From: Xylographa opegraphella
Taxonomy: Eukaryota
DNA: 64,000 bases
Direction: 5' to 3'
Assembly: GCA_022813865.1 (NCBI GenBank)
Contig: JALDZX010000055.1
Coordinates: 62,001-126,000 of the forward strand
This document shows positions 54,254-60,655 of this stretch, in pieces. The notes under the pieces were generated by a model. The model saw only the letters and a list, made by a program, of their open reading frames with translations, made no database searches and was not told where the DNA came from. Each line of letters opens with the position of its first letter. Within the stretch, counting starts at the first letter, position 1. Both the position numbers and the translations under genes were made by a program.

Positions 54254-55488
54254 CTAATAGTATGTCGCATAGCTCGAGTTGCCGTTGAGAACGTCCACGA
54301 AGTTCCTGGCAATGATTCTATCAGTTTGTTCCGAGGGATGGAGCTCATCGTAGAAGAGAAATGAGTCTGGGGAGCTTGGTTCGTAGTCGTAACATACGCT
54401 GCCGTTCATCGAGCAGTGATGTTGGAATCCAGTGACGTTGGCAGGAGCGGAGCCGTTGAGGTACACCGTTGGGTTCGTGAAGATGTCGTAGATCTACGGT
54501 GCATTAGTAAGATATGAAAGAAAAGGGGTGACGAAGGGCAATCTTACGAGGCTGTAGACATCGAAAAGGGCAAAGTTCGCACCGGGGTACCGGTTGGCAA
54601 GCATCACATCGTATGGGATCTGATACTTGAACACGTTGTCTACCGTGGTAGCGTATTCTTTCATTTGCTCAGAGATGGCGGTATGGTTGCTTCCCTTATC
54701 AGGCCAATAGTGATTTGGGCCCGCCTCTCCATAGGTATCGTTTGCATACAGTCGGGCCAGTTGGAGCGGGATGACGTTGTTCACGACGAAATATCGGGCC
54801 CCGGTGGCATATATTTCGTCCAATGCCTGGAAGACGCAGTCCGTGTAGTCGGTCAGGGTGTTGCCCGGGACTTGACTGTCGGTCAGGAAGGCATAGCTTC
54901 CGAGATCGTTGGTTCCAATCCACATGACATAGACGGCATTGTTGGCAGTCAACGCGGGGGTGAAGAGCGGCTTGCCAGTGGCGTTATTCGTGCTGTTGAG
55001 ATCAGCGATGAAAGCGGGGACCTCGTAGTCGATCACCGAAGGGAAATTGGCATTGATCGTCGACCAGATACGGGGAGTGATTTCGTTCGAGCACACCGCT
55101 CCACTGACGGCGTAGTTGTACAGAGTCATCTGAGGCTCGAATTGGTTGTTCACTTCCGAGCCCGTGTACTGGATCACATAGCGTGGCCAGGTCCGCCCAC
55201 CACCAGGTGTGCTAAAGCTCTGTACACATTTGTTCTTAGCTTGGGCATAAACCAGATTTGGAGAGGACAGTCGAGTACCTCTGGAAGCAAAGTCCCTGGC
55301 GGAGGGGCTGATCCGTTATGTGAACCGAAGTAACCCAGCCGGCTCTCATCGGTGTAGCTGTCCCCGAAGGTTATCAAGCTCGAGAAGCGCTCGACGACCC
55401 AGGCATCGCTCGCATTGGCTCGTTTGTGCAGACTCGAACACTCGATTGCGGTGCCCAGGAACAGCGCGGCAAGAAGAGAGGACCACAT
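54254..55488 (-). CDS. Secreted GDSL/SGNH esterase (CE16-like acetylesterase), 3 exons
   Basis: Signal peptide, block I FGDSYTDE, NYAVSGAVC, WIGTNDLG, and block V FYDELHPS. Confidence 0.9.
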
Positions 55489-57899: not shown

Positions 57900-58803
57900 A
57901 TGTCTCAGCTGAAAGGAAACAAAGCGATCAGCATCCTGGATGCTGCGGCCAAGGGAAAGTATGGAGTGCCGGCAGTGGTCGTGGTGAGTTCTGGCGGTTG
58001 AATATTCCTTCTATCCTGATGTGCGTCCACAGTATAACATGGAGGCCATTATCGCCACCGTGCGAGCGGCGGAAGCCAAACGCTCGCCAGCGATGCTGCT
58101 GTTGTTCCCATGGGCTCAAACATACTCGTCCACATGCCTAGCTGCGCTTTGCGCACACGCTGCCCGAAGCGCCAAGGTGCCCATCACCCTACACCTGGAT
58201 CATGCCCAAGATCCGCAAGCCATCCGCGAGGCGGCTGACATGGGCTTCTACGACAGTATCATGGTGGACATGTCTCACCATGAGAAGGCGGACAATTTGC
58301 GGTTGACCAAGGAGCTGGTGGCGTACTGCCATGAGCGAGGTATCGCTACAGAAGCGGAGCCTGGTCGGATTGAGGGTGGAGAGGACGGAATCTCCGACAC
58401 AGCGGACCTCGCAGGTCTCCTCACATCCCCCGAAGAAGCACGCGAGTTCGTGGACACCGGCATCACCTGGCTTGCTCCCGCTTTCGGGAACGTGCATGGC
58501 AACTACGGCAGCCGGGGGATCCAGCTGGAATACGAACGGCTCGATGCTATCAACAAAGAGGTGGGAGACGAGACTCGGCTGGTGTTGCACGGGACCGACG
58601 GGTTTGACGAAGACATCTTCAAGCGTTGCATCCAGCATGGGATCACCAAGGTGAATGTCAACAAGTCCGTCAACCGCTGCTATATGGACATGCAGAAAGA
58701 GGGCAAGCTGGGCTTGACACAGTTGATCGAGCAAGGCACGAAAGCGATGCAGGAGAAGGTCGAGAACATAATGGACCAGCTTGGCTCCACTGGCAAAGCG
58801 TAG
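57900..58803 (+). CDS. Class II (Zn) ketose-bisphosphate aldolase, short type; intron about 57984-58032
   Basis: YGVPAVVV/YNME, ITLHLDH, SIMVDMS, EAEPGRIEGGEDG, AFGNVHG, LVLHG and KVNVN. Confidence 0.9.
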
Positions 58804-59183
58804 ATAATCATGCAACTTGGATGACTGCGCAATGGACCAAAGCTTGTTTGACTCCAGTCAGACATTGGCGTGTTCTTCGGAACAAGTGACTTGGGCATTA
58901 CCTCGCAAATACCCCACCGGAAGAGCCGGTTCATGTATATAGTGTAGATAGTGGGGTTACTGACCCCACCATCTACTCGTCTTCTTTCTCTTCATCCCAA
59001 CTCTCTATTCTCACAACTCCTTTCAGGCATCATATTTCTGTCCATCGGGTCAAAGAAACTGCCGTTCTTATTCACGTGTATCGTCCCATCCCCCAAGAAG
59101 ACCAACTTGAACGGTATGGCTGCCATGTTGGCATCAGCTGTCTTTCCGGGGGTCTTATTCCACGATCAAGGTATTTATCAAAT

Positions 59184-59274
59184 AGCATACGGGTGTTCAT
59201 TGCTGTTTCGGCAGCTTTGATCTGAGATTATACCGTTGAACTTGATCTGGATAATTCCAGCGAAAGGACTTGCT
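59184..59274 (+). promoter_or_regulatory. TPP (THI-box) riboswitch aptamer in the NMT1 5' UTR intron
   Basis: Consensus elements GGGTG..CTGAGA..ATACCG.TGAACTTGATCTGGATAATTCCAGCGAAAGGA. P3 hairpin gctg-tttcgg-cagc and P5 CTGGA/TCCAG. Located just upstream of the NMT1 start. Confidence 0.95.
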
Positions 59275-59334
59275 TCATCCTTCCCCTAACCCTCTCCGTT
59301 CAGACTAATGATCTAGCAGCAACGTGGAACAATC

Positions 59335-60655
59335 ATGTCGACTGACAAGATCACATTTTTGACCAATTGGTGGGCTATGGTGTAGTTTGTCTTGTTATAG
59401 TGCACTAAATTGATAAAGGCATGCTACGCCATACCACGCTCCACTTTATCTTGCTCAGCACAAAGGATATTTTGCCGAGGAGGGTATCAAAGTCGCTCTT
59501 CTCGAGCCCAATGACCCGAGCGTGAGTGTGACAGCGTGGAACGCCTGTCAAATACTGTGCTTAAACATCTCTCCAGGATGTTACCGAGATAATTGGGAGC
59601 GGAAAGGTTGATCTCGGCTTCAAAGCTATGATTCATACCTTAGCGGTCAGTCGTTGCTGGTAGATCATATATCTCAATAGCCGCTGAATAGTATCCTAGG
59701 CCAAAGCTCGCAACTTCCCTGTCACTTCGATCGGTTCTCTTCTCGACGAGCCCTTCACCGGAGTCGTCTATTTAAAGGACAGCGGCATCACGACTGACTT
59801 CCATTCTCTCAAGGGCAAGCGAATCGGCTACGTTGGGGAGTTCGGCAAGATTCAGATCGATGAATTGACCAGCCACTATGGGATGACCCCCGATGAGTAT
59901 ACCGCCATCCGATGCGGTATGAACGTCTCGAAGGCCATCATCAACGGCGAGATCGATGCCGGCATTGGCTTGGAGAATGTACAAATGGTTGAGCTGGAAG
60001 AGTGGTTGGCTGGGCAGGGCCGACCCAAGGATGACGTTCAGATGCTCCGTATCGACGAACTCGCAGAACTCGGTTGCTGCTGCTTCTGTTCGATTCTCTA
60101 TATTGGTGAGATATCATTCCCAGGCGTTCTGTATACAACAGAACATGCTCTAAAGAGACACTATTCACACCATCTGTAGGCAACGACAAGTTCATTGCAG
60201 AGAATCCCGAGAGAGTGACCAAGTTCATGCGAGCATGTAAGAAGGCTACCGACTATGTGCTCGCCGAGCCAGAAAAGGCCTTGGCCGATTACATCGACAT
60301 GAAGCCCATTATGGGAACAACTCTGAACAGGAAGATCTTCGAGCGCTCGTATGCTTATTTTTCGAAGGATTTGCAGAACGTCAAGCGTGACTGGGTATGT
60401 TCAATTCAACGACGTAATTGAGCCTCATCTGACACTGCTCAGCAAAAAGTTACAAAGTACGGCAAGCGTCTGGGTGTTCTCAACGAGAGTTTCGAGCCCA
60501 ATTATACCAACGAGTTCCTTACCTGGAGCCTGGATGGTGAATCTCCCGACCCAAACGGCGACCAGAAACGTATGGTGCAGCTGCAGGCAGAGGTCGCCAC
60601 CCAGGGTGGCTTTCACCGTCTCCAGGCGTCTCATGCCCAGACTGTTTCCGCTTAG
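59335..60655 (+). CDS. NMT1: HMP-P synthase (thiamine pyrimidine biosynthesis), multi-exon
   Basis: [27 protein letters not shown] (PLP Lys and substrate His), GYVGEFG and [14 protein letters not shown]. Confidence 0.97.

Follow-up and report, generated by a model that had tools for sequence, protein, structure and literature searches.

A thiamine pyrophosphate riboswitch predicted to control 5' splice-site choice in the NMT1 leader of Xylographa opegraphella

Introduction

The subject of this report is the 5' leader of an NMT1/THI5 gene carried on a stretch of DNA from Xylographa opegraphella (assembly GCA_022813865.1, contig JALDZX010000055.1, positions 62,001–126,000 of the forward strand), together with the thiamine pyrophosphate (TPP) riboswitch predicted within it. 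The whole stretch, 64,000 nucleotides (nt) long, is referred to as the window, and all positions are counted from its first base. A preliminary description of this DNA had proposed that a complete TPP-dependent splicing switch precedes the gene, made up of two 5' splice sites (donors), upstream ATG codons (uATGs) between them, an aptamer, and an anti-aptamer segment next to the second donor. The present analysis leads to much the same view: with a probability of about 85%, the element is a TPP riboswitch in the 5'-leader intron of a filamentous-ascomycete NMT1/THI5 gene, operating as an OFF switch by way of 5' splice-site choice.

Features of the NMT1 leader

NMT1 (HMP-P synthase), which acts in making the pyrimidine of vitamin B1, is encoded by six exons, the borders of which were taken from three-frame translation, GT..AG edges and the reading frame. 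Matches to PF09084 (NMT1/THI5-like; Pfam) were found in exon 2 (E 3.2e-11), exon 4 (E 2.6e-36) and exon 5 (E 2.7e-7). The main ATG (59335–59337) lies 49 nt beyond the end of a match to the Rfam family RF00059, on the same strand, and this is the sole family match at gathering threshold (GA) in the entire window (Rfam 15). The preliminary description had placed a full TPP aptamer at 59184–59274 and had named a covariance-model search as one means of checking it; that search returned RF00059 at 57.0 bits, above GA, with the two strands of P1 forming the ends of the interval. Every pair of the aptamer given in Table 1 is canonical when checked base by base, and CUGAGA, P4/P5 and the UAAU loop are all intact in the aptamer alignment. 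By its covariance score the element is a TPP riboswitch aptamer, and is predicted to bind TPP.

Upstream of the aptamer, the two donor-like sequences that had been read at 59114 (GTATGG) and 59171 (GTATTT) were found as described, as were two uATGs lying in frame between them. The first of these uATGs overlaps donor 1, occupying intron positions +3 to +5. Donor 2 is separated by only 8 nt from the Rfam match and by 12 nt from P1, and the sequence GATCAAGGTA, at 59164, has no other occurrence on either strand of the window.

Table 1. Features and predicted transcripts of the NMT1 locus (window coordinates; uORF, upstream open reading frame)
Feature	Position	Strand	Remarks
TPP aptamer, RF00059	59179–59286	+	cmscan 57.0 bits against GA 54.3; E 1.6e-8; model positions 1–105 (full)
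P1	59184–59187 with 59271–59274	+	
P2	59189–59194 with 59230–59236	+	
P3, short hairpin	59195–59222	+	
CUGAGA junction	59222–59227	+	
P4	59241–59243 with 59264–59266	+	
P5	59247–59250 with 59257–59260	+	
P4/J/P5/L5 5' strand, CTTGATCTGGATAA	59241–59254	+	strand common to two mutually exclusive structures
Anti-aptamer segment, TTATTCCACGATCAAG	59155–59170	+	predicted partner of the P4/P5 5' strand; its 3' end is the final exon base before donor 2
Donor 1, distal 5' splice site, GTATGG	59114–59119	+	predicted; use would remove both uATGs and the aptamer
Two in-frame uATGs (59116–59118, 59125–59127)	59116–59127	+	9 nt apart
Donor 2, proximal 5' splice site, GTATTT	59171–59176	+	predicted; use would keep the uATGs in the mRNA
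CTAAC branch-like motif (59286–59290), pyrimidine tract, CAG (59301–59303)	59286–59303	+	possible upstream 3' splice site; window only
ACTAAT branch-like motif (59304–59309), TAG (59314–59316), CAG (59317–59319)	59304–59319	+	candidate 3' splice site
Predicted isoform, donor 1	from 59114		both uATGs removed; no long uORF left
Predicted isoform, donor 2	59171 to 59316		27-codon uORF, out of frame and running over the main ATG, stop at 59345
Predicted isoform, donor 2	59171 to 59319		26-codon uORF, out of frame and running over the main ATG, stop at 59345
Predicted isoform, donor 2	59171 to 59303		19-codon uORF, ending at TAA 59306–59308, upstream of the main ATG
Predicted isoform, unspliced			34-codon uORF, ending at 59220
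NMT1/THI5 (HMP-P synthase) coding region	59335–60655	+	346 codons plus stop; six exons
NMT1/THI5 exons	59335–59369, 59419–59521, 59577–59645, 59700–60105, 60180–60394, 60443–60655	+	
Class-II fructose-bisphosphate aldolase, last exon	57988–58803	+	PF01116, E 1.3e-77
Candidate TATA box (TATATA), NMT1 promoter	58936–58941	+	suggested by sequence

The anti-aptamer helix

The 5' strand of P4/P5 can take part either in the aptamer or in a helix with the bases immediately before donor 2. Its reverse complement, TTATCCAGATCAAG, corresponds to 59155–59170 except for two 1-nt bulges, so that the near-complementarity noted in the preliminary description is confirmed and gives a predicted masking helix of 14 base pairs (bp) with two bulges. 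When the strand was compared by RNAduplex with every 20-mer in 58900–59800 outside the aptamer, the best partner was 59152–59171 at −14.6 kcal/mol, the runner-up reaching −11.7. In dinucleotide-preserving shuffles of 58980–59178, 11 of 1000 attained −14.6 kcal/mol at any position.

The masking helix is present in the unconstrained, ligand-free minimum free energy (MFE) structure of 59100–59340 (−61.3 kcal/mol), and the fold in which the aptamer is enforced has −49.9 kcal/mol. Between the two, the mean probability of being unpaired for donor 2 (positions −3 to +6) is predicted to rise from 0.30 to 0.65, and that for donor 1 changes little (0.29 to 0.21). Another pairing in the MFE structure, between UUGAACGG in the donor-1 region (59108–59115) and CCGUUCA (59296–59302), was considered and set aside, as it was matched by 26 of 300 shuffles and is inconsistent in the orthologues described below.

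Acceptors and predicted transcripts

Three acceptors can be proposed in the stretch that runs from the aptamer to the main ATG, at 59303, 59316 and 59319. The sequence ACTAAT-gatc-TAG (59304–59316) is aligned by five orthologues, which carry ACTGAT, CTGAT or ACTGAC followed, after 5–6 nt, by TAG. Because this segment aligns with the branch motif and YAG of the orthologues, the acceptor homologous to theirs is TAG 59316 or CAG 59319 rather than 59303, and inspection of the group-B orthologues by eye found no AG equivalent to the latter in the interval from P1 to the conserved branch motif. A further ATG at 59308 opens a two-codon mini-ORF, ATGATCTAG (59308–59316), that overlaps both the ACTAAT motif and the TAG acceptor; it would stay in the mRNA only if acceptor 59303 were used, and then in every isoform.

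The consequences for upstream translation are listed in Table 1. The preliminary description held that the uORF is out of frame with the NMT1 ATG at every candidate acceptor. This stands for 59316 and 59319, where the uORF is predicted to run across the main ATG; it does not stand for 59303, where the uORF would end before reaching it. Conservation of the encoded peptide was also considered and rejected, as the window and its orthologues, compared by eye, are alike only in what the GATCAAG element encodes.

NMT1-linked loci in metagenomes

Metagenome contigs were scanned with a degenerate aptamer-core pattern, which gave at least 119 loci; the locus counts that follow are among the matches listed. 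The pattern fixes the P4/P5 strand, which is thus invariant by construction. Linkage to NMT1 was assigned by tblastn with the translations of the window's six exons, counting matches downstream of the aptamer, and at least 13 loci were recognized in this way (L002, L021, L035, L038, L043, L046, L049, L052, L071, L077, L079, L106 and L109). A further candidate, L054, was rejected, having only an 18-residue match that lies upstream and in the wrong orientation. Twelve leaders were analysed, L002 being left out with only 55 nt of upstream sequence; L035 and L038 are identical over the compared region.

A common plan was seen in all 12 leaders, consisting of a weak distal donor, one or more uATGs, and a GATCAAG-like element at the proximal GT. 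The distal donor is GTACGATG, with a uATG at +6 to +8, in 10 loci; in L049 it is GTACGAAC, with the uATGs further on, and in L079 it is tentatively GTACGC. At the position homologous to donor 1, GGTACGATG or GTACGA occurs in 11 of the 12. The P4 complement reads GATCAAG in eight loci, GGTCAAG in two, and GGTCGAG and AATCAAG in one each, and the purine changes in GGTCAAG and GGTCGAG all preserve G–U pairing. The GT follows the complement directly (CAAG|GTA) in seven loci, overlaps its last G (CAA|GT) in four, and is 4 nt away in L109. At the 3' end of the intron, the orthologues have a CTGAY branch-like motif with a YAG 5–10 nt further on, 15–30 nt before the ATG. When the window and 10 orthologous leaders were aligned with MAFFT, the 3' half of the aptamer and the ATG were brought into register, and the donor/anti-aptamer half was misaligned between lineages because P3 varies in length; pairing was scored locus by locus with RNAduplex instead.

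The aptamers of these loci are poorly served by the Rfam threshold. Only two of the 12 reach the GA of RF00059, and the other 10 score 37.7–52.3 bits, mostly on account of long P3 insertions, so scans at gathering score would miss most fungal NMT1 riboswitches. The window offers a compact example that lies above the threshold, with a short P3 and an intron of about 200 nt.

Five of the loci (L021, L043, L046, L071 and L109) form one lineage with a distinct arrangement. Here the P4 complement covers the GT itself, GATCAA|GT pairing with ACUUGAUC. Next come about 25–30 nt in which a small hairpin and another uATG are found, and a third donor-like site, CAG|GTACC or GTATTT, immediately precedes the aptamer. 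These leaders may represent a three-donor variant of the switch; in the window, by contrast, the anti-aptamer is fused directly to the aptamer-proximal donor.

The masking element among all aptamer loci

The association between the P4/P5 partner and a GT extends beyond NMT1. Of the 105 sequences that have 230 nt or more upstream, the window among them, 63 have a best P4/P5 partner that ends at −2 to +3 relative to a GT, against 22 of 105 in a reversed-target control, and the partner energy was −12 or lower in 42, against three in the control. Of 104 loci (94 distinct sequences), 35 have GATCAAGGTA 5' of the aptamer; for the degenerate form RRTCRAGGTR, 40 of the 104 have an upstream match on the sense strand and none has one on the opposite strand.

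Eighty-four of the loci without NMT1 have a downstream open reading frame of at least 70 amino acids; these frames were scanned for 55 of the 84, all 55 being drawn from L001–L080. Thi4 was the family of 26, followed by TonB-receptor plug (four), NCS1 permease and HSP20 (three each), zinc-type alcohol dehydrogenase and DUF326 (two each) and peptidase M1 (one), with no family for the remaining 14. Since 26 of the 55 loci are linked to Thi4, the masking element is one that the NMT1 and THI4-type switches have in common. Unexpected downstream reading frames were HSP20, in L042, L061 and L073, and the alcohol dehydrogenase, in L018 and L058. The plugs of TonB-dependent receptors (L006, L050, L075 and L080) are bacterial, and the aptamer-core pattern is therefore not strictly fungal.

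Neighbouring features of the window

The gene upstream of NMT1, on the same strand, specifies a class-II fructose-bisphosphate aldolase, and a spacer of 530 nt separates its end from the NMT1 ATG. Since the aldolase stops at 58803, the NMT1 promoter and leader must lie within 58804–59334, a compact intergenic space to be shared by the 3' end of the aldolase and the promoter of NMT1. The candidate TATA box listed in Table 1 has counterparts by eye in several orthologues, which show TATA-like motifs at similar spots 5' of donor 1. A weak match to GDSL lipase (PF00657, E 3.6e-6) in an open reading frame on the minus strand (54494–55315) is unrelated to the riboswitch.

Discussion

Every part of an NMT1-type switch that can be read from sequence is found at this locus, and it is the presence of all these parts, together with their retention in the NMT1-linked loci, that supports the interpretation of the leader as a splicing switch. 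At low TPP, the 5' strand of P4/P5 (59241–59254) would pair with 59155–59170 and bury positions −16 to −1 of the donor at 59171. Splicing would then proceed from 59114 to an acceptor situated 15–30 nt ahead of the ATG (TAG 59316 or CAG 59319 being the likeliest), both uATGs and the aptamer would be removed with the intron, and NMT1 would be translated. At high TPP, the aptamer would close on its ligand and reclaim P4/P5, freeing donor 2. The mRNA spliced from that donor, and also the unspliced RNA, would keep the uATGs at 59116 and 59125, giving a uORF of 19–34 codons that runs across the main ATG in another frame or stops a little short of it, and translation of NMT1 would be expected to fall. 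The OFF switch suggested in the preliminary description is thus favoured by the conserved parts, by the predicted masking helix and by the modelled gain in accessibility of donor 2. We infer the actual splice sites, the binding of ligand and the response to thiamine from the Neurospora model.

Several points weigh against this interpretation. Both donors depart from GTRAGT, donor 2 lacking the G at +5, and those of the orthologues are equally weak. With three acceptors to choose from, the use of 59303 could leave the two-codon uORF in place even in the ON form, and the donors, the acceptor and the transcription start are themselves predictions. The duplex energy of −14.6 kcal/mol is reached by 4 of 1000 shuffles at the fixed donor-adjacent position, which is significant and not extreme, while the fold energies, including the 11.4 kcal/mol that the enforced aptamer costs relative to the MFE, describe secondary structure without ligand or tertiary terms. 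Among the orthologues, L046 has one A–C mismatch in its P4 complement, and the anti-aptamer as a whole displays conservation and G–U-compatible changes rather than covariation, because the P4/P5 strand was fixed by the search pattern.

Of the other explanations, the one that survives best, though it is considered unlikely, is that the aptamer is functional and TPP acts mainly by blocking either the branch site or the acceptor, or by causing intron retention, with donor 2 playing a minor part. The motifs concerned would be CTAAC (59286–59290), 12 nt after P1, and ACTAAT (59304–59309), and RNA retaining the intron would be the OFF product, a role to which its 34-codon uORF would suit it. The position of CTAAC just 3' of P1 is in keeping with this, as is a slight drop, with the aptamer enforced, in its predicted accessibility (0.90 to 0.73), but that of ACTAAT hardly changes (0.57 to 0.59). 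The strong conservation of GATCAAG|GT and its directionality argue instead for selection on masking of the proximal donor. Moreover, both effects occur together in the published model, so that the distinction is one of emphasis more than a true alternative.

A related proposal, to which a somewhat smaller chance is given, is that closure of P1 on TPP also shifts use between the tandem acceptors 59303 and 59316/59319, making a dual 5'/3' splice-site switch. Were this so, 59303 would keep the two-codon uORF (59308–59316) and let the long uORF end before the main ATG, whereas 59316 and 59319 would make the long uORF overlap it. A dual switch of this kind is not described for NMT1 in the passages of PMC3597705, PMC5882874 and PMC7404189 that deal with these riboswitches.

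It is very improbable that the aptamer is conserved and no longer regulatory, or that a single donor serves the intron constitutively and NMT1 is controlled only at transcription. The non-consensus donors could be read in this way, but the aptamer scores above GA with CUGAGA, P4/P5 and UAAU intact, the accessory parts are likewise all intact and agree with those of the orthologues, and a 14-bp alternative helix next to the GT would not survive in an element that is decaying. Finally, the notion that the complementarity and the GT and ATG motifs arose by chance beside a genuine aptamer, for which it can be said that GT and ATG are frequent and that 4–11 of 1000 shuffles reach the duplex energy, is effectively refuted by the comparative data, the same arrangement being present in 12 of 12 NMT1 orthologues and many THI4-linked loci, with nothing on the opposite strand in 104 loci.

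Little of this is new, since the locus represents a canonical eukaryotic riboswitch mechanism in a canonical gene, and one that is already known. Its value lies partly in annotating the 5' leader of NMT1 cleanly, down to the non-coding upstream exon, the alternative donors and the uORF that gene callers usually miss, and partly in its compactness, which contrasts with the many orthologous aptamers that scans at GA under-call. The riboswitch of the window could also serve as a small thiamine-repressible cassette.

The riboswitch of N. crassa NMT1 was reportedly first described by Cheah et al. (2007, Nature 447:497). Its mechanism is set out for fungal NMT1 in passages of PMC3597705, PMC5882874 and PMC7404189, and these bear out the statements in the preliminary description that the mechanism is a known one and that Neurospora NMT1 works by donor masking and uORF retention. 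According to the relevant passage of PMC3597705 (Li & Breaker 2013), the P4–P5 region pairs, when TPP is absent, with nucleotides flanking the proximal site, and the product formed at high TPP carries uORFs that prevent the main ORF from being expressed, resulting in an OFF switch. Binding of TPP also represses a branch site, as a passage of the review PMC7404189 relates. As far as those passages describe the N. crassa system, the window shares with it the gene family, an aptamer in a 5'-leader intron, two 5' splice sites flanking uATGs, a P4/P5 5' strand complementary to bases beside the proximal donor, a 3' splice site lying close ahead of the main ATG, and an OFF logic based on uORF retention.

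The same textbook arrangement has been classed as 'Type I' (Mukherjee et al. 2018, PMC5882874), in which donors S1 and S2 surround a short uORF in an intron of the 5' untranslated region and an AG lies before exon 1; from the account of that type in the passage concerned, no difference from the window was found. That source also gives riboswitch control of THI4 or NMT1 as ubiquitous in the ascomycete classes apart from Saccharomycetes, Schizosaccharomycetes and Pneumocystidomycetes. Particulars of the window could be set beside the metagenomic orthologues rather than the N. crassa sequence, and are its short P3 and aptamer above GA, its donor 1 of GTATGG with a uATG at +3 to +5 (the orthologues having GTACGATG and a uATG at +6 to +8), the very short distance from donor 2 to the aptamer, and the extra CTAAC...CAG candidate acceptor at 59303.

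A more distant example is N. crassa NCU01977 (in the passage of PMC3597705 that treats it), where a TPP aptamer likewise governs the choice among 5' splice sites, but through pairing of P1' with a distant element (alpha–alpha') in an internal intron of 650–900 nt, far longer than that of the window. Closer to the window are the introns of THI4 and of Aspergillus oryzae thiA, which lie upstream of a different gene and carry the same GATCAAG|GTA anti-aptamer/donor element, many of the Thi4 loci having, like the window, GATCAAGGTATTT.

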